Shown piece by piece: positions 36,731 through 52,331 of a DNA stretch of 64,000 nucleotides. The stretch covers positions 5,121-69,120 of the forward strand of contig JAFDDB010000004.1 in assembly GCA_019311115.1 (NCBI GenBank), read 5' to 3'. Position 1 is the first letter of the stretch, and the number at the start of each line of letters is the position of its first letter. The DNA is from Deltaproteobacteria bacterium (GTDB lineage: Bacteria > Myxococcota_A > UBA9160 > SZUA-336). The notes beneath the pieces were generated by a model. The model searched no databases and had not been told where the DNA came from. It worked only from the letters and a program-made list of their open reading frames with translations. A program made the position numbers and the translations under genes.

Positions 36731-38449
36731 ATGCGCTGGTCCCAGTCCTTCCTTCCCACGTTGCGAGACGACCCCGCCGGGGCCGAGGCGGCGAGCCACA
36801 TCCTGATGGTCCGCGCCGGCCTGATCCGGCAGCTCGGGGCCGGGCTCTACTCCTACCTGCCTCTGGCGACGCGCGTCATGGCGCGGATCGAGGCGATCGT
36901 GCGAGAGGAGATGACGGCGATCGGCGGCCAGGAGCTTCGGCTGCCGGCGCTCCACCCGGCCGAGATCTGGAAGGAGAGCGGCCGCTGGGACCAGGTCGAC
37001 GCCACGCTCTTCCGGCTCCAGGACCGCCGCGGCGCCGACATGGCCCTGGCGATGACGGCCGAAGAGGTCTTCACCAGCATCGCCCGCGACGACCTGGCTA
37101 GCTACCGCCTGCTGCCGCAGATCTGGTACCAGATCCAGCCGAAGTTCCGCGACGAGCCGCGGCCGAAGTCCGGTGTGCTGCGGGGCCGGCAGTTCCTGAT
37201 GAAGGACTCGTACTCCTTCGACCTGGACGAGGCGGGCCTCGCGGAGTCGTTCCAGAAGCACCACGACGCTTACCGGCGAGTGTACGAGCGCTGCGGGCTC
37301 GAGCCGATCCCGGTCGAGGCGTCGTCGGGGACCATGGGCGGCAGCGAGTCGGTCGAGTTCATGGCGGTCTGCGATGCGGGCGAGGACTGGATCGTCACCT
37401 GCGATGGCTGCGGCTACGCCGCGAACCTGGAGAAGGCGACGTCCCGACACGGTGGGTGCGGCGAGGCCGACGACCCCGACTCCTGTCCCGCGCCGGAGAA
37501 GTTCGCGACGCCCGACCAGCGCACGATCGAGGAGCTTGCGCAGGCCTTCGACTTTGCACCGGCGACCCGCCAGATCAAGACCTTGGTCCAGGTCGTCGAC
37601 GGCCAGCCTGTCCTCTTCCTGCTCCGCGGCGACTACGAGTTGAACGACGTGAAGCAGGCCGATGCGCTCGGCACCACCGACCAGCGTCCCGCTCGCCCCG
37701 AGGAGATCGAGAAGGTGCTCGGCGCGCAAGCCGGCAGCCTCGGAGCCGTCGGCGTCGAGGAGATCGAGGTGTACGCCGACGAGTCGCTGCGAGGGCGCCG
37801 CGGCATGGTCACGGGCGCGAACGAGGACGGTTTCCACCTGCGTCACGTCGACGTCGAGCGCGACCTGCCGCAGGTCAAGTGGGTCGACGTGCGCAGCGTC
37901 GTCGAGGGCGAGGGCTGCTCGAATTGCGGCGAGCCCATCGCGTTGAAGAAGACGATCGAGATCGGGCACATCTTCAAGCTGGGGGTGCGCTACAGCGAGC
38001 CGATGCGCGCGCGCGTGCTGACCGCCGAGGGCAAGGAGACGCCGCTCGTCATGGGCAGCTACGGCATCGGCATCGACCGCATCATGGCGGCGGCGATCGA
38101 GGCGCACCACGACGACGACGGCATCGTCTGGCCGAAGTCGATCGCGCCCTTCGACGTGGTGGTCTCTCCGGTCAAGATGAAGGACGAGGTGCAGCGCGAC
38201 GCTGCCGAGAAGCTGTACGCCGAGCTCCGCGAGGCCGGCTTCGAGGTCCTGCTCGACGACCGCGACGAGCGGCCCGGGGTCAAGTTCAAGGACGCGGACC
38301 TGATCGGCGTGCCGTTCCGGATCGTCCCGGGGCCCCGCGCGCTCGTGAACGGGAACGTCGAGTTCGTGACGCGGGGGGACAGGAGCGGCGAGAAGGAGGA
38401 GGTCCCCTTGGGGGACGTCGTGGAAGAGCTGCGGAGACGCCTGGCTTGA
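36731..38449 (+). CDS. proS: Prolyl-tRNA synthetase (bacterial type with editing domain)
   Basis: Class II aaRS motifs and a ProRS-typical N-terminus. Confidence 0.9.
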   Translation: MRWSQSFLPTLRDDPAGAEAASHILMVRAGLIRQLGAGLYSYLPLATRVMARIEAIVREEMTAIGGQELRLPALHPAEIWKESGRWDQVDATLFRLQDRRGADMALAMTAEEVFTSIARDDLASYRLLPQIWYQIQPKFRDEPRPKSGVLRGRQFLMKDSYSFDLDEAGLAESFQKHHDAYRRVYERCGLEPIPVEASSGTMGGSESVEFMAVCDAGEDWIVTCDGCGYAANLEKATSRHGGCGEADDPDSCPAPEKFATPDQRTIEELAQAFDFAPATRQIKTLVQVVDGQPVLFLLRGDYELNDVKQADALGTTDQRPARPEEIEKVLGAQAGSLGAVGVEEIEVYADESLRGRRGMVTGANEDGFHLRHVDVERDLPQVKWVDVRSVVEGEGCSNCGEPIALKKTIEIGHIFKLGVRYSEPMRARVLTAEGKETPLVMGSYGIGIDRIMAAAIEAHHDDDGIVWPKSIAPFDVVVSPVKMKDEVQRDAAEKLYAELREAGFEVLLDDRDERPGVKFKDADLIGVPFRIVPGPRALVNGNVEFVTRGDRSGEKEEVPLGDVVEELRRRLA

Positions 38450-39594
38450 CTCCGCTCACCGTACTCAGCGAGGAAGAGGAGATCTTCCGCGCGACGATCC
38501 GCGAGTTCTGCGACCGTGAGCTCGTGCCGCGCGCGGCGAAGATGGACGCGCAGGGTCACTACGACCCGGAGATCCTGCCGATGCTCTTCGAGCTCGGCGT
38601 CATGTCGATCGAGACGCCCGAGGACCTCGGCGGCTCCGGCGGCAGCTTCTTCCTGTCGGTGCTCGCCGTCGAGGAGGTGTCGCGTGCCGACGCCGCCGTC
38701 GGAGTGCTGGTCGACGTGCAGAACACGCTGGTGGCGAACGCGATCCTGAACTACACGACGGATCCCCTGCGCGAGACCGTTCTGCGCCGCATGGCAGGGG
38801 GAGCGGTCACCTCGTACGCGCTCTCCGAAGCCGGGTCGGGCAGCGACGCCTTCGCGTTGCGCTGCCGGGCCGTCGCCGACGGCGACGACTTCGTCCTGAC
38901 GGGCCGCAAGCTCTGGATCACCAACGCGGCCGAGGCCGAGCTCTTCCTGGTCATGGCGAACGCGGACCCCGACGCGGGGTACCGCGGCATCACGAGCTTC
39001 CTCGTCGAGCGCGGAACTCCGGGCTTCGAGATCGGCAAGAAGGAGGACAAGCTCGGCATCCGCGCCAGCTCGACCTGCGAGCTGATTCTGGAGTCCGTGC
39101 GCGTGCCGCGCGGGAACGTCGTCGGCGAGATCGGACAGGGCTACAAGATCGCGATCGAGACGTTGAACGAGGGTCGCATCGGAATCGGCGCGCAGATGGT
39201 CGGGATTGCACAGGGCGCGCTCGACGACTGCCTGGCCTATTCGGCCGAGCGCCAGCAGTTCGGCCAGCCGATCGGCCAGTTCCAGTCGGTGCAGTTCGAG
39301 TTGGCGCAGATGGCGACCGAGATCGAGGCCGCGCGGCTGCTGGTGTACAACGCGGCGCGGCTCAAGGACGCGAAGCGGCCGTTCCTCACCGAGGCGGCGA
39401 TGACCAAGCTCTTCGCGTCGCAGGTGGCCGAGCGGGTGACCTCGCTGGCCATCGAGATCCACGGTGGGGTCGGCTACACGCGCGAGTACCCCGTCGAGAA
39501 GCGCTTCCGCGACGCGAAGATCGGCAAGATCTACGAGGGCACGAGCCACATGCAGCTGCAGACGATCGCGCGGCAACTCCAGCGCGGCGCATGA
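38446..39594 (+). CDS. Acyl-CoA dehydrogenase (short/branched-chain type, ~382 aa)
   Basis: TTG start overlapping the proS stop (TTGA); LSEEEEIFRATIREF N-terminus, YEGTSHMQ and GGVGY motifs. ORF 37456..39594 is an artefactual upstream extension. Confidence 0.75.
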   Translation: MTPLTVLSEEEEIFRATIREFCDRELVPRAAKMDAQGHYDPEILPMLFELGVMSIETPEDLGGSGGSFFLSVLAVEEVSRADAAVGVLVDVQNTLVANAILNYTTDPLRETVLRRMAGGAVTSYALSEAGSGSDAFALRCRAVADGDDFVLTGRKLWITNAAEAELFLVMANADPDAGYRGITSFLVERGTPGFEIGKKEDKLGIRASSTCELILESVRVPRGNVVGEIGQGYKIAIETLNEGRIGIGAQMVGIAQGALDDCLAYSAERQQFGQPIGQFQSVQFELAQMATEIEAARLLVYNAARLKDAKRPFLTEAAMTKLFASQVAERVTSLAIEIHGGVGYTREYPVEKRFRDAKIGKIYEGTSHMQLQTIARQLQRGA

Positions 39595-40475
39595 GCCGTC
39601 GCCCGAAGGTCTGGCTGATCGACGGGCACTACCAGATCTTCCGCGCCTACTACAGCATGCCCGACCTGCGCGCGCCCGATGGCACGCCGGTCGGGGCATT
39701 CCGCGGGTACGCGTCTACGCTGATCAAGTTCGTGCGCGAGGAGCAACCGACGCACGTGGGCGTGGCCTGGGACCACGCCATGACGAGCTTCCGCAACGAG
39801 CTTTGGTCGGAGTACAAGGCGGGCCGCACCGAGGCACCGGACGACCTGGAGCCGCAGTTCGGCCTCTGCGCCGAGGTCACGCGGGCGCTCGGCCTTCCGG
39901 TCTACTCGCTCGAACGCTTCGAGGCCGACGACGTCATCGCCACCATGACGCGCAAGCTCCTGGCCAAGGGGGCCGACGTCGTGATCGTGACCGCCGACAA
40001 GGACCTCGGCGCCCTGGTCTCGGACCGGGTCAGGCTCTACGACCTGAAGAAGCAGGAGAGCCAGGGACCCGACGAGCTGCGCGAACGCATGGGCGTGCCC
40101 CCGGAGCGGATCAGCGAGTTCCTGGCGTTGGTCGGCGACGCCGTCGACAACGTGCCGGGCGTGGCCGGCATCGGCGCAAAGACGGGTGCCGCGCTGCTGA
40201 ACCACTTCGGGTCGCTCGCGGACATTCCGAGCGACTTCGAAGACTGGAAGGAGCTGGAGCTGCGCGGGAAGCGGCGCGCGTTCGACTGCCTGGCGGCGGG
40301 GACCGAGCAGCTCGAGCTGTCGCAGCGCCTGGTCGAGCTGCAGCGCGACCTGCCCGTCGACGTGAAGCTCCGCGAGCTGCAGTACCGCGGCGCGCGTCGC
40401 GAGCCGCTCGAAGAGCTGCTCGGAAGACTGGGGGCGGACGCGCTGCTCGACCGCGTGACCCGCTTCGCTTCGTGA
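39591..40475 (+). CDS. Stand-alone 5'-3' exonuclease (Pol I N-terminal / FEN-like)
   Basis: VWLIDGHYQIFRAYYS and helix-3-turn-helix GVPGVAGIGAKTGAALL; ATGA overlap with the upstream stop. Confidence 0.75.
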   Translation: MSRRPKVWLIDGHYQIFRAYYSMPDLRAPDGTPVGAFRGYASTLIKFVREEQPTHVGVAWDHAMTSFRNELWSEYKAGRTEAPDDLEPQFGLCAEVTRALGLPVYSLERFEADDVIATMTRKLLAKGADVVIVTADKDLGALVSDRVRLYDLKKQESQGPDELRERMGVPPERISEFLALVGDAVDNVPGVAGIGAKTGAALLNHFGSLADIPSDFEDWKELELRGKRRAFDCLAAGTEQLELSQRLVELQRDLPVDVKLRELQYRGARREPLEELLGRLGADALLDRVTRFAS

Positions 40476-41032
40476 TCGCGCACCTGCTCACCGGCACGCG
40501 CCTCGTACTGGTGGCTCCGTTCGCGCTCCTCATGCTGCGCGACGATGCCGCCGCGCGCTGGCTCGCGGCAGGATCGCTCGTCCTCGCCATCGCCACCGAC
40601 CTGCTCGACGGGCCGGCGGCGCGCCGCGCGGCGCTGCGCAACGGACGCGGCGAGAGCGCCTGGGGACGCGCGTTCGACCACGGGACCGACTTCTTGTTCG
40701 TCACGGCGGGGCTCTTCGCCATGGCGGCGCGAGGCGCGGCCCCCTGGCTGCTGCCCGTGCTGATCTGTCTGGCCTTCGCGCAGTACGTGGTGGATTCGTA
40801 CTGGCTCGGGCGGCAACGGCAGCTGCGCATGAGCACGCTGGGGCGTTGGAACGGGATCTTCTACTTCGTGCCGCTCTGCGCCGACGTGGGCTCACGCGCG
40901 CTGCTCGGCGGCGCGCTCGCGCAGCCCGTGCTGTGGCTCGGTTGGGCGCTGGCGGCGAGCACCCTGCTCTCGATCGCCGACCGCTTGCTCGCTCTCAGGC
41001 GGAGTCCAGCAGTTCCCGCGTCGCGCGCCTGA
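40472..41032 (+). CDS. CDP-alcohol phosphatidyltransferase-family protein (186 aa)
   Basis: GTG start overlapping the exonuclease stop; motif DLLDGPAARRAALRNGRGESAWGRAFDHGTDFLF matches the D(x)2DG(x)2AR...G(x)3D(x)3D signature. Confidence 0.65.
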   Translation: MIAHLLTGTRLVLVAPFALLMLRDDAAARWLAAGSLVLAIATDLLDGPAARRAALRNGRGESAWGRAFDHGTDFLFVTAGLFAMAARGAAPWLLPVLICLAFAQYVVDSYWLGRQRQLRMSTLGRWNGIFYFVPLCADVGSRALLGGALAQPVLWLGWALAASTLLSIADRLLALRRSPAVPASRA

Positions 41033-41935
41033 GGAAGAGCAGGCCGATGGCCGCGTTGAAGAAGATGAAGAAGTTGTGCATGACGAAGCCGAACGCCGTC
41101 ATCTCGGCTTCGCGTCCCGGAAACAGCTCCACCCAGAGCACGATCGCGACCGAGCGCATCGGGCCCGGCGTGGCCGCACCGAAGAAGATCACGGGCAGGT
41201 AGCCCAGCATCTCGCCGAACTCGACGTCTACCCCGAAGAGCCCAAGCGCCAGCGTGTAGATCACGACGGCGGCGAGCAGCGCCGGAGAACGCAGCAGCAC
41301 GATCGTCCCGTACTTCCGCAGGTTCGCGCGCCGGAACGCCAGCAGGATAGGCCGGTCGCGCAGCGCGACCCCGGGCAGGATGCGGCCCTGGAAGTAGAGC
41401 ACCCACAACGCCAGGAACGCGGCGGCGGCGAGCGCCAACACGGGGATCCAGTGAAAGACCGCGGGCAGACTGTCCCAGCGCATGGCGACGCCGAGCGTCG
41501 CCCAGGCCAGCAGGTAGTAGAACTCGCAGAACATGATGAAGAGCATCGACGAGCCGACCTCCCAGCCGGGAACGTCGTCTCGCCGGTTCAAGTAGAGCGC
41601 CATCGCTCCCTTGCCGATCTGCTCGTTGATGATCGACAGGATGTAGGCGCTGCCGCGGATCGGCAGGATGTCCAGGTAGCGAACGGGAGCGTTGAACCAG
41701 CTGACTACGCGCCACACGACGAGCGTGTCGATGGCGAAGAAGAAGAGCGAGTACGGGATCATCATCCCGATCCACAGCACCCAGTTGACGTCCTGCAGGA
41801 TCCCGACCAGGTAGGTGGCCGGCGTCGCGCCGGCGCGCGCGGCCGCGGCACCGACGCGCCCGTACAGGTACCAGAAGCAGGCGAACGTGATCGCCCAGGG
41901 GAGCAGGCGGAACGCGATGGCGCGCGCTCGCCTCA
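40995..41935 (-). CDS. Polytopic membrane protein of the flippase-like / LPG-synthase-TM (UPF0104) type
   Basis: Last ~313 aa of ORF 40995..42755; eight predicted TM helices; GTG start overlaps the stop of the NmrA-like gene. Confidence 0.45.
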
Positions 41936-42856
41936 CGATGCTTCCAGGCTCCGGCGCAGCATGTCGTCGAGCGGTGTGAGATCGAGACCGAGCGCGTCGC
42001 AGGCGGGCTTCGGGTCGACGTCGGTGTCGGTCGTAATCACGTCGAGCGCGTCGGCCGAGAAGCCGGACGCACCGACCGCTCCGCGCAGCCGCAGCAGCAG
42101 GCGCAGCATGACGAGTGGGGCCGACCGCACGCGCACTTCGTGCCCCAGCTCGCGTGCCGCACGGCGCACCAGGTCCGCGTCGCTGAGTCCGTCGCGGCCC
42201 GCCACGTCGAGCACGGTGGAATCGGCGAGCCCCGGCTCGGCGGCGCGGAACGCCGCGCGCGCCAGGTCGGCCACGTCGAGCGGCTGCTGCCGCTGCCGGC
42301 CTCCGCCGGGGAGTGCCACGCTGGAGCCGCTCGCATTGCGGCGAAGCGCGGCGGCCCCCTCGGTTCCCGGTCCGAGCACGAGTGGCGCGCGCAGGATCGT
42401 CCAGGCGAGACCCGCGTCGCGGACCAGCGACTCGGCCTCGCCCTTGGTGCGGTAGTAGCGGTTCGCCGAGCCCGGGTCCGCGCCGAGTGCGCTCACCAGC
42501 ACCAGCTTGCGCACGCCCGCGGTGCGCGCCGCGTCGACGACCGCGCGGGTCGTCGCGACGTTGGCGCGTTCGTAGGTCGAGCCGGGCGACTCGACGAGGA
42601 CGCCGGGCAGGTGCACGACGCTCTCGACTCCCCCGTTCTCGACTCCCCGGAAGGCGCTGACCAGGCTGTCGGCGTCGTCGTAGTCCACGCGCGCGACCCG
42701 CGTCGCGGGTCCCAGGGCCGGGAGTTGGCTCTCCGCGCGTTCGGACCGGACGCACGCGACGATCTCACCGGCCAGCGCGTCTGCGCCGCCGGAGGCCAGC
42801 TGCAACATCGCCCGGCCGACCGCGCTGTTCGCACCGGTGATCGCGACAGGTCCCAT
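41933..42856 (-). CDS. NmrA-like / atypical SDR NAD(P)-binding protein
   Basis: MGPVAITGANSAVGRAML Rossmann N-terminus; ~300 aa. Confidence 0.55.
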   Translation of the reverse strand: MGPVAITGANSAVGRAMLQLASGGADALAGEIVACVRSERAESQLPALGPATRVARVDYDDADSLVSAFRGVENGGVESVVHLPGVLVESPGSTYERANVATTRAVVDAARTAGVRKLVLVSALGADPGSANRYYRTKGEAESLVRDAGLAWTILRAPLVLGPGTEGAAALRRNASGSSVALPGGGRQRQQPLDVADLARAAFRAAEPGLADSTVLDVAGRDGLSDADLVRRAARELGHEVRVRSAPLVMLRLLLRLRGAVGASGFSADALDVITTDTDVDPKPACDALGLDLTPLDDMLRRSLEAS

Positions 42857-42880
42857 GGCGTGAACGGCTCCAGCGAGGCC

Positions 42881-43954
42881 CTAGCGGAACTTGCCGCGCG
42901 CCGAGATCGGCCAGGTGGTCTCGAGCCGGTCTCCGCGCATCACGTGGTAGGTGTCGTGGAGGTTGATCGTGGTGTCGCCGTGCGAGGGCAGCAGGCGGAT
43001 CTTGTCGCCCGGCGCCAGGTCCAGCTCTTCGCCCTCGTCGATCTGCACGTGCCCGTGCTCTTCCGACAACCCGACTACCGCCAGGGGAAGATCCGCGCCC
43101 GTCGGCATTCCGAAGTCCCGCGACAGTGCCTTGGAGCCGCAGTCGGTGATCAGGAGCTGCCCGCGGCGGCGCAGGACCGTAGTCAGGATCGTCAGCGCGG
43201 GCTCGAACTCGTCTCGTACGCGGGAGTAGGCGCCGTCCATGAAGACGTAGCTTCCGGCCTGGATCTCGGTGATGCCCGGCGCGACGCCGCTGATGTCGTG
43301 TGTGCCCGTGCCGCCCGCACTCACGATGCCGGGCTCGAGCCCCGCGTCGACGAGCGCCTGCCGGTGCGCCTGCAGCGTGGCGACCGCCTGGCCGGCCAGG
43401 GCGGCGCGCTTCTCCGCGTCGGGAATCAGCACGGCGTGCCCTTCGTAGCCCATCAGCCCGCGGTACTCGACGCGGCTCCGCTCCAAGGCGCGTGCGAGTT
43501 CGACCGTCTCCTCTGGCGCGTCCGTCCCGCAGCGGTGCATCCCGGTGTCGGCCTCGACGAGCGCGCCGATCCGTGCGCCGCTCTGCGCGACCGCCTCGTC
43601 CAGGGCGTGGACCTGCTCGGCGGAGTCGACCGCGACGATCAGCTCGGGAAGCCGTCCGGCCAGCTCGACCAGGCGTGCCAGCTTCGGCGCGCCGACGATC
43701 TGGTTCGCGATCAGCACCGACGCGTCGAGTCCGGCCTTCGCGATCTCCTCGGCCTCGCCGATCTTCGCGCAGGTGATGCCGATCGCACCCGCTTCCAGCT
43801 GGAGCTTCGCGACCTGCGGACACTTCGGCGTCTTGAAGTGCGGTCGCAGGTTCGCGCGCTGTCCGGCGAAGAAGGCGGCCATCGTCGCGATGTTCCGCTC
43901 GACGCGGTCGAGGTCGAGCAGCAGTGCCGGCGTGTCGATCTCGGCCCAGGGCAT
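42881..43954 (-). CDS. PLP-dependent enzyme with an alanine-racemase-N-like fold (DSD1 / D-threonine aldolase / D-serine deaminase-like family)
   Basis: LRPHFKTPKC (lysine in the HxK[TS] context) and C-terminal domain typical of the D-TA/DSD1 family. Confidence 0.55.
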   Translation of the reverse strand: MPWAEIDTPALLLDLDRVERNIATMAAFFAGQRANLRPHFKTPKCPQVAKLQLEAGAIGITCAKIGEAEEIAKAGLDASVLIANQIVGAPKLARLVELAGRLPELIVAVDSAEQVHALDEAVAQSGARIGALVEADTGMHRCGTDAPEETVELARALERSRVEYRGLMGYEGHAVLIPDAEKRAALAGQAVATLQAHRQALVDAGLEPGIVSAGGTGTHDISGVAPGITEIQAGSYVFMDGAYSRVRDEFEPALTILTTVLRRRGQLLITDCGSKALSRDFGMPTGADLPLAVVGLSEEHGHVQIDEGEELDLAPGDKIRLLPSHGDTTINLHDTYHVMRGDRLETTWPISARGKFR

Positions 43955-43976
43955 GCGCAGATGCTAGCATGCGCCC

Positions 43977-45524
43977 GTGACCGGACGGCTCGTCTACGGA
44001 GCGGCCGCGCTCCTGCTCGCGGTCTCGTTGCTGGGTCTCGGATCGGCGACGCGTGCGGTGCATCACTACGCGGTCGAGATGCCGGGCGGAGTTCCCGCGA
44101 TCGTGTACGAGCCCGGTCCCGCGCGGCCGGTCCCGGGTCCGCCGCGCACCGGCGAGCCCGTTCCCGTCGTCGTGCTGGCGCACGGTTACATGGGCAACAC
44201 GTCGATGATGAGTTCACTCGCGCGGCGCCTGGCCCGGGCGGGCTACGCCTCGGTCGTGCTGGCGTTCCGCGGACACGACCGCAACCCGCGGCCGTTCTCG
44301 ACCGGCGGCTTCGACTTCGAGGGAATCCACCAGGACCTGGCGGCGGCCGTTCGCTTTGCACGTTCGCAGCCCGGCTTCGATCCCGAGCGCACCGCGGTGG
44401 CGGGCCACTCGATGGGCGCGTTCACCGCGCTCGAGTGGGCGAGCCGCGACCCCGCGGTCGACGCCGTGATCGCCATCGCGGGCGGCGCCCCGCCAGGTGG
44501 ACCCTATCCACCGCCGAACGTGCTGCTGGTCTGGGCGTCGGGAGACCCGAAGATGCTCCGCGACGGCGCGCGCGAGGCGGCCGCGTCGCTGGCGGGACTC
44601 CAGCGCGTCGTCCTCGACCGCACCTACGGCGAGTTCGCACGCGGCTCGGCGGTGCGCGCCAGCGAGGTGGACGGCGTCGACCACCTGACCATCCTCTACT
44701 CCGCGGACATGGCGCAGCGAGTCGTCGACTGGCTCGGGCAGACGCTCGGACCGGGCGTCGACGCGAGCGGCGCCACGGGCGACGGCCGCTTCGGTTGGAC
44801 GGGGCTCGGTCTCGTCTCCGCGCTGGTCCTGCTCTGGGGACTGGTCGGTCTGCTCGCGCCGTTCGTTCCGCGGGTCGAGAATCCCGTGACCACGTCGTCG
44901 CTGGGTGCGCTCGGCACACTGGCCGGAGCAATGACCGCGGGCGCGGTGCTGCTCGCGGGCGTCGACGCGGGCTCGCCCGGCGGCCCCTTCGGCTTCCTGC
45001 CTCTCGCCGTGTCGGCCCCCGTCTCGGGCTACCAGGCGCTCTGCGGAGTGCTGTTGCTGCTGGTGCTGGCGCACGGCGGCGCGCTCCGGCCCGGCCTGCG
45101 CGACTCGCGGATGTGGACCTGTGCGGGCGTCCTGCTGCTCGCGACCTACTTGATGATGGGGACGTTCCTCGAGCCCTACGCCTGGCGTTGGCTGACGCCG
45201 CAGCGCGCGCTGCACGCGTTCGTGCCGTTCGCGCTCATGCTGCCCTTCTTCGCCGCATTCGAGCTGCTGCTGCGCGGCGCGCGGCCGTGGGTGCCCATCG
45301 CCGGACGCATCGTCATCCTGGGCGTGATGGCGCTGGCCACGATCCTGCAACTGCTGCCGTTCGAGTTGTTCCTGGCGCTCGGCGGGTTCGTGGTCTTCTT
45401 CGCGCTCTTCGAGGCGATCGGCTACCGGGCGTCGCGCGTGGCGCCGAACCCGTGGCTCATGGGCGTGTACCAGGCGGGCTGGAGCGCGCTCGCGCACGCG
45501 TCGCTCTTCCCCGTCCTGGCGTAG
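43977..45524 (+). CDS. Alpha/beta-hydrolase fused to a C-terminal polytopic membrane domain (possibly CPBP/Abi-like)
   Basis: Signal peptide; nucleophile elbow GHSMG; C-terminal ~250 aa with six or more TM helices and an EExxxR-like FELLLRG. Confidence 0.55.
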   Translation: MTGRLVYGAAALLLAVSLLGLGSATRAVHHYAVEMPGGVPAIVYEPGPARPVPGPPRTGEPVPVVVLAHGYMGNTSMMSSLARRLARAGYASVVLAFRGHDRNPRPFSTGGFDFEGIHQDLAAAVRFARSQPGFDPERTAVAGHSMGAFTALEWASRDPAVDAVIAIAGGAPPGGPYPPPNVLLVWASGDPKMLRDGAREAAASLAGLQRVVLDRTYGEFARGSAVRASEVDGVDHLTILYSADMAQRVVDWLGQTLGPGVDASGATGDGRFGWTGLGLVSALVLLWGLVGLLAPFVPRVENPVTTSSLGALGTLAGAMTAGAVLLAGVDAGSPGGPFGFLPLAVSAPVSGYQALCGVLLLLVLAHGGALRPGLRDSRMWTCAGVLLLATYLMMGTFLEPYAWRWLTPQRALHAFVPFALMLPFFAAFELLLRGARPWVPIAGRIVILGVMALATILQLLPFELFLALGGFVVFFALFEAIGYRASRVAPNPWLMGVYQAGWSALAHASLFPVLA

Positions 45525-45527
45525 CCG

Positions 45528-45959
45528 TCAGGCCAAACCCGCGCGCGCGCCGAGTGCCTGGCCGTGCGAGAACTCGCACGTATTGCCCGACGGGTCGCGC
45601 ACCATCGTCAGGTAGCCCGCGACCTCGCCCGCATGGAGAGGCGCGAGCTTGAGCACGCCGTCCTCGCGTGCCAGGTCCGCGATGCGGTCGACGGCCTCGC
45701 GCGACTCGACGGCGAAGCCCAGGTGATCGCATGGAGGAGGCTCGAGCACGCGCTCGTGCGGCATGCTGAGCAGCACGATCGCCAGCTCGGGCTCCTGCTT
45801 CTCGTGCGACAGCCAGACCACGCGGATGCCGTCGTCCTCGCGCTCGTGCACCAGGTGGAGTCCGGCGTACTTCTGGTAGAAGGCGATCGACGCGTCGATG
45901 TCGTGGGTGCGCACCGCGACGTGGGTCAGCTGCGCGGCGGCCTGGCTCGGTTCACTCAT
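45528..45959 (-). CDS. VOC/glyoxalase-family protein
   Basis: THVAVRTHDIDASIAFY...HLGFAV beta-alpha-beta-beta-beta VOC pattern; last gene of the coupled operon. Confidence 0.6.
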   Translation of the reverse strand: MSEPSQAAAQLTHVAVRTHDIDASIAFYQKYAGLHLVHEREDDGIRVVWLSHEKQEPELAIVLLSMPHERVLEPPPCDHLGFAVESREAVDRIADLAREDGVLKLAPLHAGEVAGYLTMVRDPSGNTCEFSHGQALGARAGLA

Positions 45960-45993: not shown

Positions 45994-47139
45994 TCACGTC
46001 TGCGGGACGACGGGCTGGAGCGCGCCCATGCCGTCGTGGGGCCAGTCGATCGGTGGAAGCTGCATGCGGCCGAGTGCGCAGACCCGCGAGCCGCCGCCAG
46101 CGCGCGCGACCTCGAGCAGTCGCCGCTCCCCGCCGAAGCCCTCGTGACCCAGCGAAGATAGACCAGGTGCCAGCGAGGTGCAGCGCGCGGCGAGTCCGTC
46201 GATCCCCTCGACGGACACGAGGGGGACGTTGCGCAGCGTGCCCGGAGCGGCCGCTTCCCCGCCGGCGACGAAGACACCCCAGTCGCTGGAGCCCTCGCCG
46301 GACGGGAACCAGCACGCGGGGCTGCGCAACGCCTCTCTCGCACGCCGCTCGCGCAGCGCGACGGCCTCGCCGGCCTGCAGCGCCCCGCGTGGGATGTCGG
46401 TGCGCAGGCGCTCGAGCGCGGTCGAGAGCGCCTCGCCGAACGCCCCGGTGCGTTCTCCATCGGGGTCGTCGACGAAGATCCAGGCGGGCGACAGGCAGCC
46501 GCGACCGTCCCAGAGACAGACGTCGAGTGCGGCGCGTTCCGCCGCGCCGGCCAGGTCCGCGTCGCGTCCGACCGCGGCGGCCGAGAGCTTGTGTCCGTAG
46601 CCGACGAACGGGCGCGCTCCCGCGCGCCCGCGCAGGATCCGAACCGTCTCGTCGCTGCCGTACGCGACGACCGCGTCGGCCTCGTCGAGCGCGGAGTCGT
46701 CCGCGTCCAGCGCCAGCGCGTCCGCCACGCCCGCATCGCACTCCCGCAGCGAGGCGGCGAAGAGCCGGGGAGTCTCCGGATCGGACGACGCGGGCTTCGC
46801 CTGCACGGCGCAGCCCGCCAGCAGCGGAAGGGCGAGCGCGGAAAAGGTGCCGGTCGGCACGGTCCCGGCCAGCCAGACGGCGGCGAGCGCGGGTGCCCGC
46901 GCGTTCTCGAGTTCGCGGCGGCGCAGTGCGCGCAGGACGTCCGCAGTCCAGCCGTCGAGTCCGTCGCAGACGCCCCGTTCGATCGCGGCGCGCGACCAGA
47001 CCGGACACGCGCGGGCCAGCGCATCGCGCCACGCCGAGCCGGGAGCGCGCCAGGCCGCAAAGGTGCCCTCGAGCGCGGCGATCACCCGCTCCGCCGGCAG
47101 GACGCAGGCGGCCTCGCGTAGCGCCGCCGGGTCGCTCAC
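45994..47139 (-). CDS. LuxC-family acyl-CoA/acyl-protein reductase (fatty aldehyde-forming)
   Basis: YGSDETV...FVGYGHKLS...DVCLWDGRGCLSP, with the catalytic Cys in a GC(L)SP context as in LuxC (PF05893); GTG start overlaps the LuxE-like stop. Confidence 0.6.
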   Translation of the reverse strand: MSDPAALREAACVLPAERVIAALEGTFAAWRAPGSAWRDALARACPVWSRAAIERGVCDGLDGWTADVLRALRRRELENARAPALAAVWLAGTVPTGTFSALALPLLAGCAVQAKPASSDPETPRLFAASLRECDAGVADALALDADDSALDEADAVVAYGSDETVRILRGRAGARPFVGYGHKLSAAAVGRDADLAGAAERAALDVCLWDGRGCLSPAWIFVDDPDGERTGAFGEALSTALERLRTDIPRGALQAGEAVALRERRAREALRSPACWFPSGEGSSDWGVFVAGGEAAAPGTLRNVPLVSVEGIDGLAARCTSLAPGLSSLGHEGFGGERRLLEVARAGGGSRVCALGRMQLPPIDWPHDGMGALQPVVPQT

Positions 47140-48227
47140 CCTCCCCCCAGCAGCGCGTCGGCCGCGATCGAGCAGCCGCGCGCCTCGGCGCCGGCGATGC
47201 GTCCGCGCACCTCCAGGCCTTCCGCCGTTAGCGTGCCTTCGTCCGCGGTCTGTACCGCGAGGACCGATCCGGTGTTCGCCAGGTCGTAGTGGACCAGCAG
47301 TCCGGGCTCGCCTTCGGGGACGTCGCGCAGGTGTTCGGGGTCCACGACGCGCGTGCGTACCCAGGGAGGGATCCGCTTGCGCGTCGTGACGACGCCCGTG
47401 CGCAGCGTCGGCTCGTAGAACTGGCTGCCGAGCTCGCACATGCCGTACTGGTTGAGGATGGCGTCGGGGGGGACACCGAGCGCCTCGCTGATCCCCCCGT
47501 GCAGCTCTTCGCGCGAGAGCTCGCGCGACCGTCCCTTGAAGCCGCCGGTCTCCATCACGCGGCTGCCGTCGGGGAGCGCGAGCTTCAGGCCGACGGCGCG
47601 CATGCCGTCGATCAGGTGCACGAAGGCGAACGCGGTGCCGCAGATCGCCACCGGCGTGCGCGCGCGCTGCAGCGCCGTCATCGCGATCGCCATGTCGAGA
47701 CCGCCGTGGCCGAAGAGCATGGCGCTGTCGTCGGAGCCCAGGTCGCGGACCGCCGCGTCGAACATGTACGACAGCGACGAGTCGGGCGCGTCCCGCAGCG
47801 GCGTCGCCATCACCAGGATTCGCACGGGCTCGGGATCGGGACAGACCCAGGCGCGGAACGTCGCGCGGAGAGACGCGTCGTACAGTGCCAGTGTGTCCAG
47901 GTGCAGCTCGCCGCGGCGTTCGGTGGTGCTTCCGCTGGTCCGGAACACGCGCACGGTCTCCGCCTCGGGGAACGCCGCGAGCCGCGCCTCCTTGAACGCG
48001 CCCGTCGGCACCGACGGGATCTCCGACCAGTGTCCGACGCCTTCCGGCGCGCGTCCGAAGGCCGTGCAGAGCCTTCGGTACGGCTCGTTGTACTCGAACT
48101 GGTGCAGGAAGAGGGCGCGGGCCAGCGCGTCGAAGCGCGCTTCGTCGGCGGGCGCGTCCACGCCATCGGCGATCCAGGCCAGGACCTGGTCGTCCAGGTC
48201 CTTCCGGCTCTCGCGCGCCGCGCTCAC
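47136..48227 (-). CDS. LuxE-family acyl-protein synthetase (adenylate-forming)
   Basis: FRTSGSTTERRGELHLD (SSGTTG-like P-loop) and overall LuxE/PaaK-like topology; real start is an inner GTG of ORF 47136..49397, overlapping the aminotransferase stop. Confidence 0.6.
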   Translation of the reverse strand: MSAARESRKDLDDQVLAWIADGVDAPADEARFDALARALFLHQFEYNEPYRRLCTAFGRAPEGVGHWSEIPSVPTGAFKEARLAAFPEAETVRVFRTSGSTTERRGELHLDTLALYDASLRATFRAWVCPDPEPVRILVMATPLRDAPDSSLSYMFDAAVRDLGSDDSAMLFGHGGLDMAIAMTALQRARTPVAICGTAFAFVHLIDGMRAVGLKLALPDGSRVMETGGFKGRSRELSREELHGGISEALGVPPDAILNQYGMCELGSQFYEPTLRTGVVTTRKRIPPWVRTRVVDPEHLRDVPEGEPGLLVHYDLANTGSVLAVQTADEGTLTAEGLEVRGRIAGAEARGCSIAADALLGGG

Positions 48228-49480
48228 GCGGACAGCAGCTCCGCGAGGCGCGCGGTCGCGCCCTCGAGCAGGCTCTCCGCCACGTTGAGCGGCGGCGTCA
48301 GCGACAGCACCCGCCCGTCCGGACCCTCCTGGATCAGGATCCAACCCGACGCCAGCGCGTCTTCGACGACGCGCGCGGCGCGCGCGGCGGTGTCTAGTTC
48401 GATGCCCAGCATGAGCCCGCGGCCGCGCACGTCGACGACGCCGGGCAGTGGCGCCAGGGCGGAGCGAAGGTTCGCGAGCCAGCGCTCTCCGACCTCGGCG
48501 GCGCGGCCGGGCAGGTCGTCGCGCGCGAGCACGTCGAGCACCGCGCACGCCACGGCGCAGCCGAGCGGGTTCCCGAGGTGCGTGCTGGTGTGCCGCGCCT
48601 CCTCGCCGCGCTCTCCCCAGCCCTTCATCACGCCGGGGCGACCGGCGCAGGCCGAGATCGGAAAGCCGCCGCCGAGCGCCTTGCCGACCGTCACCAGGTC
48701 GGGAACCACGCCGTCGTGCTCGCACGCCAGCCAGCGTCCGGTGCGTCCCAGTCCGGTGTAGACCTCGTCGGCGATCAGCAGCGCGTCCTCGTCGTCGGCG
48801 ATCGCGCGCAGGTCGGACAGGAACCCGGCGGGCGCGGGGTGCGCGCCGCCTCGCCCCTGGACCGGCTCGACCAGGATCGCGCCCGCCGCGTCGGCGCGGA
48901 CGGCACGCCGCACGGCGTCGGCGTCTCCGAAGCGCACGAAGGTGGTGCGCCCGGGCAGCCGCTCGGCGAAGGGCTCGCGGAACAGCGCAGCGTGCGTCGC
49001 GTCGAGGGCTCCGAGTCCCAGCCCGTGGTACGCATCCTCGAACGCCACCACGTGTGCGCGTCCCGTCACGACGAGGGCGGTCTTGAGCGCGGACTCGACC
49101 GCGTCCGATCCCGAGGCCGACAGGATCGGCATGCCCAGGTCGGCCGGCAGCCGCCTCGTGAGCGACTCCAGCAGAGCCACGCGCACCGTCGCCGGGTGGA
49201 CGTCGGAGAGCGCGTGCGGGAGCACCGCGGCCTGCTCCTGCAGCGCGCGGGTGGCCTCGGGGTGGGCATGGCCGATCGCGGCCACCCCGAATCCGGCGAG
49301 CAGGTCGACGTAGCGGTTGCCGTCGGCGTCCCAGACGTTGGAGCCGTTCGCCCGCTCCCAGAAGATCGCCCCCGGCATCGCGCTGACCTCGGGGCACTCG
49401 ACGTGGTGCAGGCGCTCGAGCAGGGCCTGCGAGGACTTGCCGGGGACTTCGCCGCGGATCTCCGGGGGCTGCTGGCTCAT
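48224..49480 (-). CDS. Class III (omega-type) PLP aminotransferase
   Basis: GSDAVESALK, DEVYTGLGRTG and TVGKALGGG (PLP lysine) motifs. Confidence 0.75.
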   Translation of the reverse strand: MSQQPPEIRGEVPGKSSQALLERLHHVECPEVSAMPGAIFWERANGSNVWDADGNRYVDLLAGFGVAAIGHAHPEATRALQEQAAVLPHALSDVHPATVRVALLESLTRRLPADLGMPILSASGSDAVESALKTALVVTGRAHVVAFEDAYHGLGLGALDATHAALFREPFAERLPGRTTFVRFGDADAVRRAVRADAAGAILVEPVQGRGGAHPAPAGFLSDLRAIADDEDALLIADEVYTGLGRTGRWLACEHDGVVPDLVTVGKALGGGFPISACAGRPGVMKGWGERGEEARHTSTHLGNPLGCAVACAVLDVLARDDLPGRAAEVGERWLANLRSALAPLPGVVDVRGRGLMLGIELDTAARAARVVEDALASGWILIQEGPDGRVLSLTPPLNVAESLLEGATARLAELLSA

Positions 49481-49607
49481 CACTCCGCGGATGCTAGCCG
49501 GAAAGCGCGCGGCAGCGCCCGCGCAGTCGGCGCGCACGCCTGCCCGTGTCGCGTCCCGCTCAAGTCGGGACCGGATGACGCCGATGTCCGGGTCGGGAGG
49601 TCTCTAC

Positions 49608-49922
49608 ATGCAGTGGTTCGGAATGCTCCTGGTCGTGGCTTCGCTGGTGCTCGGCAGCGGTGGAGTCGCCTATCGCTCGCATGCGAGCAGCGTGGTGGGC
49701 GGACACGAGCAGTTCGGCATGACACCGGCCCAGGGCCTCGGGACCCCGGCCACCGCGCCCGTGGTCCGGGCGGCGGCGTGCCCGGCCCCGCAACCGCTCG
49801 AGATCCGGCTGCCGAAGCGCGCACGCCGGCACGTCGTGAGCCTGACCAACCGCGGCTACAACTACCGCGGCGGGCTCGCCGACCTCTCGCGCACGCAGCC
49901 TCCGGCCAGTCCGCGCGACTAG
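49608..49922 (+). CDS. Small secreted hypothetical protein
   Basis: GGAGG RBS then MQWFGMLLVVASLVLGSGGVAYRS signal-like N-terminus. Confidence 0.35.
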   Translation: MQWFGMLLVVASLVLGSGGVAYRSHASSVVGGHEQFGMTPAQGLGTPATAPVVRAAACPAPQPLEIRLPKRARRHVVSLTNRGYNYRGGLADLSRTQPPASPRD

Positions 49923-50401
49923 CCGGTAGACCGCGTCCCGCCCGGGGAAGGCCTGGGCTCCGGCGGAGCGGCATCGAGTCCGCGCCGCAGTCCGCGCCAC
50001 AGCAGTCCGTGCGCCACCCCGACCGCGACCACCGCAGGCAGGTCTCCGGCCCCGAGCCAGCCGGCCCCGAGCCAGCGAAAGGGCGCGGCGCAGAGAAGCG
50101 GGAGCGCCAGCGCCCAGAGTGAGACGCGCTGGTACTGCCAGGGAGCGAGGCGCGGTGCGCGCCCGACGAAGTGCCCCGCCACCGAGAGCAGCGCATGGCA
50201 TGCGAGCGGGACGGCGAGGGAGCCCAGCGGGACGGCGAGCAGCGTCGCCGCCAGTGCCAGCAGCGCGCCGTAGCGTCCACCCCGGCGCGCTCCCAGGATC
50301 CGCCGCAGCGCGACGCCGTCGCCGGCCACCACCCCGCGCAGGAGGCGCGGCACCTCGGCGCGGGCGACGAAGACCCGGCGCTCGGGGGTCCGCGCGCTCA
50401 C
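49919..50401 (-). CDS. Small polytopic membrane protein
   Basis: C-terminal part of ORF 49919..51445; GTG start overlapping the upstream stop; three hydrophobic helices. Confidence 0.35.
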   Translation of the reverse strand: MSARTPERRVFVARAEVPRLLRGVVAGDGVALRRILGARRGGRYGALLALAATLLAVPLGSLAVPLACHALLSVAGHFVGRAPRLAPWQYQRVSLWALALPLLCAAPFRWLGAGWLGAGDLPAVVAVGVAHGLLWRGLRRGLDAAPPEPRPSPGGTRSTG

Positions 50402-51246
50402 CGCAGCTCCGCCCGCAGCTCGGACTCGAGCTCGGCCAGCGAGCGGTGGTAGGTCCGGTCGAGTGCCCGGTCGAGGTTCCGCGTGCGCGCGAGTTCCTGG
50501 CAGAGCCAGCGCAGCTTCTGCTCGCCGTGGCGCCGGGCCAGGTACTCGATCATGCCGTGCGACTCCAGGTAGGCGAGCGAGGCGCTGTCCCCGGAGAGGT
50601 GCGCGAAGCTCGGGCCGGCCAGCGACTCGAGAGGCAGCCAGGTCCCCTGGCGCGAGGCTTCGGTCAGCACACGGTACTGCCCCGGGCCGAGCCGCCGGCC
50701 CATGGCCTGCGCCTCGACGTACTCGGCCAGCCCCTCGTTGAGCCAGGCCGGGAAGAGCCCGGGGCCGACCTCGGCCTGGATCGCCGCGTGGGTGTACTCG
50801 TGGTTGAGCGTCCCCGCGAGGGCGGCGTCGACCCGGGTCGCGCCGCGCACGTGGATGGCCCCGTCGAAGAACCCGACCGCCCGGAATCCGAAGTAGCCCT
50901 GGTACTTGGCGTCGAAGACCCCCGGGTCGTAGACCGACACGCGAACGTGGTGACCCGGCCAGATCCCGAGGAGGTTTCCGACCCGGTCGTAGGCGCGCTC
51001 GAGGATGTCGAGAAGCTGCAGCTCGAAACGGCGCCAGCCGTGGGGGCCCGAGTACTTCTCGATGTCCACGTCCTGGTACAGACGGAAGTGCGCCGACTTT
51101 CGCTCCTGGAAGTGGCCGTCCGGCTCGGCCCGGGCTTCGGGTGCGAGGGTCGAGGCGAAGCCCGCTGTGACGAGGGCCACCGACAGGAGGACGAGCCACA
51201 CCCCCCGCGTTGTCTGGATCGAAGCTCGGCGGCTGGGGGTCGGCAT
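50398..51246 (-). CDS. Secreted putative Zn-metallopeptidase (HExxH)
   Basis: Signal peptide VWLVLLSVALVTAGFAST; HEYTHA (HExxH) plus downstream NEGLAEY. Confidence 0.5.
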   Translation of the reverse strand: MPTPSRRASIQTTRGVWLVLLSVALVTAGFASTLAPEARAEPDGHFQERKSAHFRLYQDVDIEKYSGPHGWRRFELQLLDILERAYDRVGNLLGIWPGHHVRVSVYDPGVFDAKYQGYFGFRAVGFFDGAIHVRGATRVDAALAGTLNHEYTHAAIQAEVGPGLFPAWLNEGLAEYVEAQAMGRRLGPGQYRVLTEASRQGTWLPLESLAGPSFAHLSGDSASLAYLESHGMIEYLARRHGEQKLRWLCQELARTRNLDRALDRTYHRSLAELESELRAELR

Positions 51247-51359
51247 CGCAACTCCGGGGAAATGGCCTCGCGCCCTTGCGCTCGGTTCCGTGCATGTTAT
51301 CTGACGAACTGCGCGTTCTGACCTTCAGCGAGCGCGCTGAATGGGGAGGAGGAGTCCAC

Positions 51360-51560
51360 ATGGCAGCGAGGAAGAAGGCGAAGAAGGCCGGCGACCCGAT
51401 GATCATCTCGAAGTCGCGCGTCAAGGCGGCCGTCAAGAAGTGCAACGTTGGTGCAGAGTTCTACGGCGCGCTCGAGGGCGAGGTCCGCGACCTGATCAAG
51501 AAGGCCGAGGCCCGGTGCACGGGCAACAAGCGCAAGACCCTGCGCGCCGCCGACGTATAG
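51360..51560 (+). CDS. Bacterial singlet histone-fold protein (HBb/DUF1931-like) with a lysine-rich N-terminal tail
   Basis: Strong RBS GGGAGGAGGAG; MAARKKAKKAGDPMIISKSRVKAAVKKCNVGAEFYGALEGEVRDLIKKAEARCTGNKRKTLRAADV has the alpha1-L1-alpha2-L2-alpha3 histone-fold pattern, including the RKT-x-x-AxD ending. Confidence 0.6.
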   Translation: MAARKKAKKAGDPMIISKSRVKAAVKKCNVGAEFYGALEGEVRDLIKKAEARCTGNKRKTLRAADV

Positions 51561-51687
51561 AGTCGACGGAGAATCCGATCGACCGGGCGCCGGAGGGGAC
51601 GACCCCACCGGCGCTCGATTCGTTTGGGCCCAGCGCGTCGAGCCGTCCGAGCGGCTAGAATTGCCGCATCCGGCCCCGATCGTCCTG

Positions 51688-51735
51688 CCCACCGCGCTGC
51701 CCACCGCGCTGCCCACCGCGTTACCCACCGCGTTA
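51688..51735. repeat. Perfect 12-bp tandem repeat x4 (CCCACCGCGCTG x2, CCCACCGCGTTA x2) immediately upstream of the ECF sigma gene
   Basis: Read directly: CCCACCGCGCTGCCCACCGCGCTGCCCACCGCGTTACCCACCGCGTTA. Confidence 0.85.
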
Positions 51736-51758
51736 CCGAAGGGGCCTCCGGAGCGTAG

Positions 51759-52331
51759 ATGTCGGAGGAACGAGACGAACGGCGGGCCCGGGAGGGTCGC
51801 TGGTCGGAGCTGATGGCTGCCGGCCAGGACGGCGACGCCCCGGCGTACGAGCAGCTTCTCCGCGAGCTGCTGATCCCCCTGCGGGCCTTCGCCATGAGCC
51901 GGCTCGGAGATCCCGCCAGTGTCGACGACGTCGTGCAGAACGTATTGCTCTCCATCCACCGCGCGCGCCACAGCTACCGGCCCGAACGTCCGTTCGGTCC
52001 CTGGCTCTGGACGATCGCGCGCAACGCGGTCACCGACTCGCTGCGTGCGCGCTCGACGCGCCTGCGGCGCGAGCTGCCGATCGACGAGCTCGAGGGAATC
52101 GACGAGCCCTCGGTCGAGCAGCAGCCCCAGCTCGCCCTCTCTCCGGCGTTGCGGGCCGCCCTCGACGGACTGCCGCCGGCGCAGCGCCAGGCGGTCGAGC
52201 TGATGCACGTGCACCAGCTCAGCGTGGCCGAGGCGGCGGAGCGCGCGGGGGTGAGCCCCGGCGCGCTCAAGGTGCGCGCGCACCGCGGCTACAAGGCGCT
52301 GCGCGTGGCGCTGGCGGACGAGAAGCCATGA
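51759..52331 (+). CDS. ECF (group IV) RNA polymerase sigma factor
   Basis: Region 2 DVVQNVLLSIHRARHSY and region 4 LPPAQRQAVELMHVHQLSVAEAAERAGVSPGALKVRAHRG. Confidence 0.8.
   Translation: MSEERDERRAREGRWSELMAAGQDGDAPAYEQLLRELLIPLRAFAMSRLGDPASVDDVVQNVLLSIHRARHSYRPERPFGPWLWTIARNAVTDSLRARSTRLRRELPIDELEGIDEPSVEQQPQLALSPALRAALDGLPPAQRQAVELMHVHQLSVAEAAERAGVSPGALKVRAHRGYKALRVALADEKP

Follow-up and report, generated by a model that had tools for sequence, protein, structure and literature searches.

The stretch analysed here, referred to as the window, comprises 64,000 nucleotides of the Deltaproteobacteria bacterium assembly GCA_019311115.1 (GTDB lineage Myxococcota_A; UBA9160; SZUA-336), taken from contig JAFDDB010000004.1, positions 5,121 to 69,120 of the forward strand. 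Between its positions 40472 and 42856 lie three adjacent genes encoding a CDP-alcohol phosphatidyltransferase, a polytopic protein predicted to adopt the fold of the MprF flippase domain, and an NAD(P)-binding member of the short-chain dehydrogenase/reductase (SDR) superfamily. These genes are co-located far beyond chance. Since they retrieve one another when the search is anchored from either side, recur in unrelated genomic backgrounds, and include SDR-flippase fusions, we conclude that the transferase, SDR and flippase-like genes form a functional module, hereafter the trio. On balance, and with moderate confidence, we read this module as a split version of the enzyme-plus-flippase lipid systems typified by MprF and GpgSDF, equipped with a head-group synthase of its own.

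The window has a G+C content of about 71%, because of which most of its listed open reading frames (ORFs) are spurious; genes were therefore called from the frame analysis of third-position GC (GC3) together with Pfam and NCBIfam scans, and every gene of the neighbourhood was confirmed in this way. The source is a Myxococcota metagenome-assembled genome (MAG). Protein records from NCBI and JGI match the gene calls exactly, and the window transferase is identical to the NCBI-annotated protein P0271. A preliminary description of the region, made from the letters alone, had placed five genes of lipid-related folds between 40472 and 45524; GC3, the Pfam and NCBIfam scans and the structural models bear out both positions and folds, except that the polytopic gene ends one base further on, at 41936. 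The features of the trio are as follows.

40472 to 41032, plus strand: CDP-alcohol phosphatidyltransferase of 186 aa (PF01066), the putative head-group synthase of the trio
40995 to 41936, minus strand: MprF-flippase-like (PplT/PF03706-related) eight-helix membrane protein of 313 aa, trio
41933 to 42856, minus strand: NDUFA9-like NAD(P)-binding SDR of 307 aa, with NAD_binding_10, Epimerase and NmrA matches in Pfam, trio
40995 to 41032, convergent: 38-bp overlap between the 3' ends of the transferase and flippase-like genes, from the gene coordinates

The SDR and the membrane protein are the most tightly bound pair. In the window, the SDR stop codon and the flippase-like start codon share the letters GTGA, a 4-bp overlap by which the two genes are translationally coupled. 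Across 80 loci from species-representative genomes and two further contexts, all anchored on the flippase-like gene (n = 82), the SDR stands immediately upstream in 75; five of the remaining seven have too little upstream sequence, and the other two (L006 and L035) have full flanks. The two proteins are also found as a single chain, namely P0122 (626 aa; N-terminal SDR Pfam domains followed by a flippase-like region at 320-625 scoring 452 bits) and one 648-aa ORF in L066. Adjacency, overlap and fusion together mark a bipartite pairing of an enzyme with a membrane domain.

The transferase lies convergently downstream in 62 of the 82 loci, often within 300 bp, and in 42 of the 49 that offer 7 kb or more of sequence. 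It is also the last gene of a plus-strand run whose members are joined by 4-bp overlaps, and the other genes of this run are listed below.

36731 to 38449, plus strand: proS, backbone context
38446 to 39594, plus strand: acyl-CoA dehydrogenase, backbone context
39591 to 40475, plus strand: 5'-3' exonuclease, backbone context

This arrangement invites a simpler explanation, in which backbone synteny has juxtaposed the genes by chance, the transferase being a housekeeping phospholipid synthase and the other genes having unrelated roles. In its favour, the transferase gene comes after proS and shares bases with the exonuclease gene, close relatives are collinear with the window over all of the 20 kb, housekeeping genes make up the remainder of the window, and proS lies within 10 kb in 46 of the 82 loci. 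Because this makes proS nearly as frequent as the transferase, the reverse test was run with the transferase as anchor, in 80 metagenome loci that are mostly from soil and have 54-60% GC. There the flippase-like gene is tail-to-tail with the transferase in all 54 loci having at least 1 kb downstream, and the SDR follows in 40 of 45; proS, on the other hand, is upstream in only 2 of 36. The spacing between the two convergent genes is −40 to +22 bp across most of the 54 loci, and with the 38-bp overlap in the window, transcriptional interference or antisense coupling is conceivable. The trio is moreover found in unrelated backgrounds, including a Rokubacteria locus (L086), a 2.1-Mb contig of 57% GC (L087) and Acidobacteriota-labelled genomes (L026, L070 and L076), and in Rokubacteria and other backgrounds it recurs without proS. 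Together with the SDR-flippase fusions and a transferase score far under the pgsA cut-off, these results largely refute chance synteny for the trio, and we regard it as improbable as a general account; it is possible for the aldolase-like gene and the LuxCE cassette discussed below. The genes proS, exonuclease and acyl-CoA dehydrogenase are backbone and stand outside the module. At least 274 species-level genomes carry the trio, as do thousands of metagenomic proteins, and a limited full-text search on the gene combination found no description of it in the searchable literature.

The transferase matches PF01066 (CDP-OH_P_transf) with 53.8 bits against a cut-off of 22 (E 3.8e-14). Its signature is complete (D43xxD46G47xxA50R51...G65xxxD69xxxD73), and at least 90% of 62 homologues retain the pattern DxxDGxxAR...GxxxDHxxD. 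Among the NCBIfam models it comes closest to pgsA and the CMP-forming cardiolipin synthase ClsA, both below cut-off: 27.8 bits against the equivalog cut-off of 109 for PgsA (TIGR00560), and 30.4 bits against 240 for ClsA (NF053678). The transferase thus falls outside both equivalogs, and the reading as PgsA was rejected. The same weak matching to pgsA/ClsA-type models is seen in 25 of 25 family members examined, with a best E of 4.7e-16. A phmmer search of the PDB with the transferase found nothing, and a profile search gave weak, motif-limited matches to CPT1/CEPT1, PgsA, PssA and phosphatidylinositol-phosphate synthase. With this score and with its partner flippase-like gene present in every suitable metagenome locus, the housekeeping PgsA role that had been named as a possible objection does not apply. 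Mean pairwise identity of the transferase over 42 genomes is 0.51.

For the membrane protein, an AlphaFold model built from 27 homologues (pLDDT 86.6, pTM 0.83) has the eight-helix fold of the MprF flippase domain: when compared with the PDB by Foldseek, its top five matches are all MprF flippase domains, with probability 1.00 and TM scores of 0.64-0.68, and the next match has a TM score of 0.25. Four distant full-length relatives (P0173, P0186, P0208 and P0246) pass PF03706 at 36.6-43.8 bits against a gathering score of 33.4, while the homologues P0148 and P0057 reach 33.3 bits, just below that score, and 20.3 bits. A profile of the family finds 733 relatives among 1.84 billion representative proteins. 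Because the fold matches MprF only, the relatives are few and the distant ones pass PF03706, the protein is, as judged from model and profile, a narrow, divergent branch of the MprF-flippase/PplT superfamily. It begins with a basic stretch, and several polar or charged residues of its helices are invariant in the family (D70, N104-E105-Q106-x-x-K109, R118-R119, E138 and H287-N288).

The third member, the SDR, has the hallmarks of its superfamily, including the nucleotide-binding motif T7-G-A-N-S-A-V-G14 (TGANxxxG), V36-R37-S38 (VRS), S122 and Y134-x3-K138. It has no signal peptide. Its closest solved relatives in the PDB are NDUFA9-type proteins, to which the similarity is weak (E 1e-8 to 1e-12). 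NDUFA9, the 39-kDa subunit of complex I, is a structural NADPH-binding subunit. Mean pairwise identity of the SDR in the same 42 genomes is 0.54. A tyrosine-type SDR (NxY[YFW]xxKGxAE) is found at 50 loci, which include the window, the Acidobacteria-like loci, the Rokubacteria locus L086 and the fusion P0122.

Taken together, these features suggest how the module could work. At the cytoplasmic face of the membrane, the transferase would produce a lipid head group in phosphodiester linkage, as its intact catalytic signature indicates. The SDR would be cytoplasmic and docked on the N-terminus of the flippase-like protein, to which it is fused in some genomes, and would probably oxidise or reduce that lipid or a similar one. 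The flippase-like protein, by analogy with MprF and GpgSDF, would then move the product to the outer leaflet. The analysis establishes the gene identities, folds and motifs, the gene coupling and fusion, and the co-location across phyla; from these we infer the substrate class, the SDR reaction, the direction of transport and the roles of the accessory genes. Going one step further, we tentatively propose that the trio makes, in abundant uncultured lineages, a previously undescribed phospholipid whose head group or backbone is redox-modified by an NAD(P)H enzyme wired to its translocator or, alternatively, that the membrane protein is a new lipid enzyme built on the MprF fold; this proposal is offered with low confidence.

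Known systems provide partial precedents for such an arrangement. MprF (PDB 7DUW, 6LVF, 7F47, 9J8S and 9GOE), an aminoacyl-phosphatidylglycerol synthase joined to a flippase or scramblase, has the same eight-helix membrane fold, and in both systems a cytoplasmic enzyme is physically coupled to the membrane domain, as a separate or a single chain. In the trio, however, an NAD(P)-binding SDR takes the place of the tRNA-dependent aminoacyl transferase, it is N-terminal rather than C-terminal, and the membrane family is far more conserved than is described for MprF flippase domains; sequence similarity to MprF is undetectable. MprF of P. aeruginosa has been reported to be a promiscuous scramblase (PMC11980842). 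The gpgSDF genes of Pseudomonas aeruginosa and the hexSDF genes of Clostridioides difficile encode a synthase, a deacetylase and a UPF0104 flippase (PMC12713373); like them, the trio combines a head-group former and a head-group modifier with a stand-alone membrane protein of UPF0104/PplT type. Those systems use a GT4 synthase and a deacetylase in one operon, whereas the trio has a CDP-alcohol phosphatidyltransferase and an SDR, and its synthase gene is convergent.

Further precedents for UPF0104/PplT proteins come from a preprint that describes numerous fused architectures as well as YbhN next to ClsB (bioRxiv 10.1101/2022.03.11.483950). Like E. coli YbhN (PplT) with ClsB, the trio places a stand-alone translocator of MprF type beside a phospholipid synthase; ClsB is of phospholipase D (PLD) type, on the other hand, and PF03706 does not recognise the membrane protein of the window. 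An SDR partner is not among the prevalent PplT architectures listed in the available part of that preprint. For an SDR acting on a membrane lipid, the precedent is CerR, the bacterial ceramide reductase, a periplasmic enzyme described as NDUFA9-homologous and as a lipid reductase peripheral to the inner membrane (PMC11087976). CerR and the trio SDR are both NDUFA9-like, but the trio SDR has no signal peptide and in P0122 is fused to the cytoplasmic N-terminus of its membrane partner. The sphingolipid pathway to which CerR belongs (Spt, bCerS, CerR) was considered for the region and rejected, as neither an spt (alpha-oxoamine synthase) nor a bcerS-type gene turned up in the scanned window genes or the recurrent neighbours.

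Several observations weigh against reading the trio as a lipid-modifying flippase module. The window membrane protein itself fails PF03706, with no Pfam match even at E 10, an NCBIfam scan gives no match either, and a broadened family profile finds no MprF sequence, indeed no sequence at all, in the PDB; with a sequence link to MprF undetectable, the tie is one of fold and transitive homology. In the same 42 genomes, the flippase-like protein has a mean pairwise identity of 0.68, close to the 0.70 of ProS, the prolyl-tRNA synthetase; such conservation, combined with the invariant polar helix residues, differs from ordinary MprF flippase domains, which are described as low-identity. In the SDR, the catalytic tyrosine is replaced by cysteine (NACLASKGRAE) at 69 of 125 loci with a usable SDR match, all Myxococcota-labelled and of 58-74% GC, so that a canonical dehydrogenase reaction is not guaranteed family-wide. 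The nucleotide-binding motifs are invariant in both types; catalysis may thus differ between the tyrosine and cysteine types, or the latter may bind nucleotide only. The models for pgsA, ClsA, PssA and phosphatidylinositol-phosphate (PIP) synthase all score the transferase weakly and far below their cut-offs, so that its acceptor is unassignable, and the gene is co-transcribed with housekeeping genes. Because it is convergent to the SDR-flippase pair, the trio is not an operon. One lineage of 67-69% GC (L106, L107, L109, L164, L165 and L167) keeps the tail-to-tail transferase and flippase-like pair with no adjacent recognisable SDR, the ORFs in the SDR position of L106 having no Pfam match. 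Finally, none of the loci retrieved could be traced to a cultured carrier.

From ProS-level conservation and the invariant polar residues, the flippase-like protein might not be a flippase but an enzyme or a highly specific transporter. On this account, the trio would be real but would not modify and flip a glycerophospholipid; the SDR would be a regulatory subunit or a structural NADPH-binding one, as its resemblance to NDUFA9 and the cysteine replacement would allow, and the substrate might be an envelope precursor, polyprenyl-phosphate-linked or of another kind, that is made with a CDP-alcohol as donor. That the family is a narrow offshoot instead of a generic PF03706 group, and that the models assign neither donor nor acceptor to the transferase, is consistent with it. 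We nevertheless judge this account rather unlikely. MprF flippase or scramblase domains are the only structural relatives of the membrane protein, the window-type SDR retains the full S-Y-K set, and no glycosyltransferase, polyprenyl or cell-wall genes recur beside the trio; besides, the known partners of UPF0104 proteins act on glycerolipids (PMC12713373; bioRxiv 10.1101/2022.03.11.483950). We retain the split MprF/GpgSDF-style lipid module as the preferred reading.

In the window and its close relatives, this module is embedded in a larger gene set, to which the following features belong.

42881 to 43954, minus strand: PLP enzyme of 357 aa resembling D-threonine aldolase and 3-hydroxy-D-aspartate aldolase (Ala_racemase_N and D-ser_dehydrat), subclade-specific
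43977 to 45524, plus strand: membrane-embedded lipase/cutinase-like alpha/beta-hydrolase of 515 aa, accessory, from Pfam matches and an AlphaFold model
45528 to 45959, minus strand: VOC/glyoxalase-fold protein of 143 aa (PF00903), last gene of the LuxCE operon
45994 to 47139, minus strand: LuxC-family acyl-thioester reductase of 381 aa (PF05893, E 1.4e-40)
47136 to 48227, minus strand: LuxE-family acyl-protein synthetase of 363 aa (PF04443)
48224 to 49537, minus strand: class-III aminotransferase of 437 aa, ArgD/LysJ-like (PF00202, E 8e-89), first gene of the LuxCE operon

The region thus contains four transcription units in convergent and divergent orientation rather than a single operon. The five genes of the preliminary description lie in three of them, one being the minus-strand unit of the aldolase-like gene, the SDR and the flippase-like gene, which converges on the transferase; the LuxE/LuxC/aminotransferase operon is the fourth. 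Within this operon the LuxE gene overlaps both neighbours by 4 bp, and the hydrolase stop codon lies 3 bp from its converging end. The preliminary description had taken all of these genes for a coherent membrane-lipid island. It was right to see a lipid theme, and some of the neighbourhood does hold together as a conserved unit, but what is kept across Myxococcota, Acidobacteriota and Rokubacteria is the trio and not the nine genes. The full order (aminotransferase, LuxE, LuxC, an optional VOC gene, hydrolase, an optional aldolase-like gene, SDR, flippase-like gene, transferase) is confined to the Myxococcota subclade of the window (L083, L084, L088, L090, L110, L114, L169 and L170), in which ProS is 65-81% identical to that of the window, as opposed to 55-61% in other Myxococcota. 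The VOC gene is present in L083, L084, L088 and L170 and absent in L169. Co-occurrence with LuxC and LuxE homologues, the check proposed for the island, does not extend to relatives in general: LuxC is found in 9, LuxE in 4, the aminotransferase in 1 and the aldolase-like gene in none of the 82 flippase-anchored loci. The subclade island does persist despite insertions of Rrf2, GST, Metallophos and small-ORF genes, loss of the VOC gene and differing flanks beyond the aminotransferase, which is weak evidence for selection on the arrangement, proS being equally retained in the subclade. As extra members of the gene set, the Metallophos, GST and Rrf2 genes, which lie between the aldolase-like gene and the SDR or adjoin the transferase, were rejected, each being found at single loci and none being recurrent.

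The hydrolase is an accessory of the trio. Its AlphaFold model (pLDDT 92.3, pTM 0.91) shows an N-terminal helix, a domain resembling lipases, cutinases and monoacylglycerol lipase (fold matches at E 1e-8 to 1e-9), and eight C-terminal helices. The predicted catalytic triad is Ser145-Asp190-His236, and 29 homologues show little or no variation at G143-H-S145-M-G147, D190 and H236. For the confidently modelled eight-helix C-terminal domain (residues 271-510), there is no Pfam match, and the PDB fold matches listed for the protein all cover the hydrolase domain, with none to the C-terminal part. The gene divergently adjoins the SDR operon in 12 of the 82 flippase-anchored loci (about 15%). Because it stands beside the SDR in all three hydrolase-anchored loci, one of which (L171) has no LuxCE, it tracks the trio rather than LuxCE. 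The lpiA-acvB operon encodes a lysyl-phosphatidylglycerol (Lys-PG) synthase and a Lys-PG hydrolase (PMC13197417), likewise an alpha/beta-hydrolase beside an MprF-type lipid modifier, which suggests a make-and-remove pair; by this analogy, the window hydrolase is possibly a turnover enzyme, as AcvB is for Lys-PG. Unlike AcvB, it is an integral membrane protein with about nine helices and a lipase/cutinase-like domain, and it is restricted to that minority of Myxococcota loci. In a few genomes a different protein, a secreted PAF-acetylhydrolase-like hydrolase, occupies its position.

As for the LuxCE cassette, its proteins are far from the bona fide fatty-acid Lux system, an assignment that was rejected: LuxC scores 31.5 bits against an NCBIfam equivalog cut-off of 750, and LuxE 62.9 bits against 550. 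No luxD or luxAB genes were seen in the window scans; in comparison with the LuxC/LuxE fatty-aldehyde system, the cassette thus has no luciferase or luxD genes and has an extra VOC-fold gene. The best NCBIfam matches of the aminotransferase are acetylornithine and LysW-aminoadipate-semialdehyde transaminases. Given the low LuxC and LuxE scores and an ArgD/LysJ-like transaminase, the cassette resembles a route from carboxylate through semialdehyde to amine, possibly with a non-fatty substrate. A parallel is provided by the TabE/TabA reductase-transaminase route to alkylamines, in which activation and thioester-to-aldehyde reduction are followed by transamination to the amine (bioRxiv 10.1101/2025.08.11.669332). 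In the window subclade, the trio would accordingly be supplemented by the divergent lipase-like hydrolase, by the aldolase-like gene heading the SDR operon, and by the LuxE/LuxC/transaminase/VOC operon, which would take a carboxylate through an aldehyde to an amine.

The most restricted layer is the aldolase-like gene, found in L083, L084, L110, L114, L169 and L170. Its product matches D-threonine aldolase 7DIB (E 2.5e-61), BhcC 6QKB (1.2e-59) and 4V15 (8.7e-59) over the full length, and carries both PF01168 (93.7 bits) and PF14031 (66.8 bits). Its RPHFKTPK aligns with RPHAKAHK of 4V15 (RPHxKxxK, the PLP-lysine motif), and its PSHGD with PSHVD; the His-x-Asp pair is of the aldolase and not the dehydratase type. 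The residues of these two motifs presumably serve as the PLP-binding lysine and the metal ligands. Such matches and motifs rule out an alanine racemase (Alr/DadX), a second housekeeping role that had been raised as an objection. Assignment as a BhcC equivalog (NF045642) was likewise rejected at 272.5 bits against a cut-off of 690, and no bhc-cycle genes surround the gene in the window.

From this enzyme, the preliminary description had developed a speculative idea, namely that the nine genes form one island in which the aldolase-like enzyme joins glycine to a LuxC-made fatty aldehyde, giving a 2-amino-3-hydroxy fatty acid and hence a sphingoid-like lipid independent of serine palmitoyltransferase (SPT). 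The aldolase-type His-x-Asp suits such a reaction, and all six loci with the gene belong to the hydrolase-bearing subclade, with LuxCE present wherever the contig reaches (four full cassettes, one partial LuxC match and one contig too short). The island is also intact in L083, L169, L170 and L088, where the flanks beyond the aminotransferase differ. On the other hand, the gene is lacking in the wider loci and also in L088 and L090, which have both hydrolase and LuxCE. It does not share a transcription unit with LuxCE, the hydrolase gene standing between them, and in some subclade loci Rrf2, GST and Metallophos genes intervene between it and the SDR. The cassette has an aldehyde sink of its own in the transaminase, and its Lux scores and ArgD/LysJ-like transaminase allow a non-fatty substrate. 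The product of such an aldolase would be a D-configured amino acid that retains its carboxylate, not a sphingoid base. The SPT-independent idea thus found no direct support, and we consider it very improbable.

Some further observations concern the control regions and flanks. The divergent start codons of the aldolase-like and hydrolase genes are 22 bp apart, and the spacer contains two copies of the octamer GCATGCGC, at 43951 and 43967, of which the first shares bases with the aldolase start codon; the pair may serve as an operator. An Rrf2 regulator gene is located just downstream of the aldolase-like gene in L084. Rfam gave no match in the window at gathering thresholds, and a promoter and terminator scan yielded fewer sites than expected from shuffled sequence. 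Upstream of the aminotransferase operon (49538-52331), ORFs at about 49560-50280 have no Pfam match; they are followed by a Peptidase_MA_2/DUF1570-like gene at 50398-51246 on the minus strand, a peptidase adjoining the operon in L083 as well, and by an ECF sigma factor gene at 51759-52331 on the plus strand. The remainder of the window (1-64000) contains housekeeping genes, including those for chorismate synthase, an M23 peptidase, acetyl-CoA synthetase, RNase D, a pseudouridine synthase, UvrD and GlmS.

Around the trio in other genomes, an MFS_1 transporter gene immediately precedes the SDR and runs in the same direction in L001 (7699-9060, overlapping the SDR start) and about 14 other Myxococcota loci. 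In 30 of 80 loci, and in Myxococcota only, an MFS homologue is encoded no more than 10 kb away, between the suf operon and the SDR, and is possibly either accessory or backbone. In eight Myxococcota loci, a protein of about 1,010-1,040 aa without a Pfam domain is encoded between the flippase-like gene and the transferase (L001 10932-13973; L008 10942-14061).

Systems that couple a head-group enzyme to a UPF0104/PplT flippase, such as MprF, GpgSDF and HexSDF, alter membrane surface properties and antimicrobial resistance. Earlier systems of this kind involve aminoacyl or sugar transfer, whereas in the trio the fold has as its partners an NAD(P) oxidoreductase and a CDP-alcohol phosphatidyltransferase dedicated to it. 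The layering described here, with a widespread trio and subclade-specific additions, shows which of the nine genes merit cloning together. The carriers are Myxococcota, Acidobacteriota and Rokubacteria from soil and the sea, uncultured groups for which there is hardly any lipid biochemistry, and the three small genes, which are expressible in E. coli, would offer a direct route to the lipid and possibly to a new environmental lipid biomarker.

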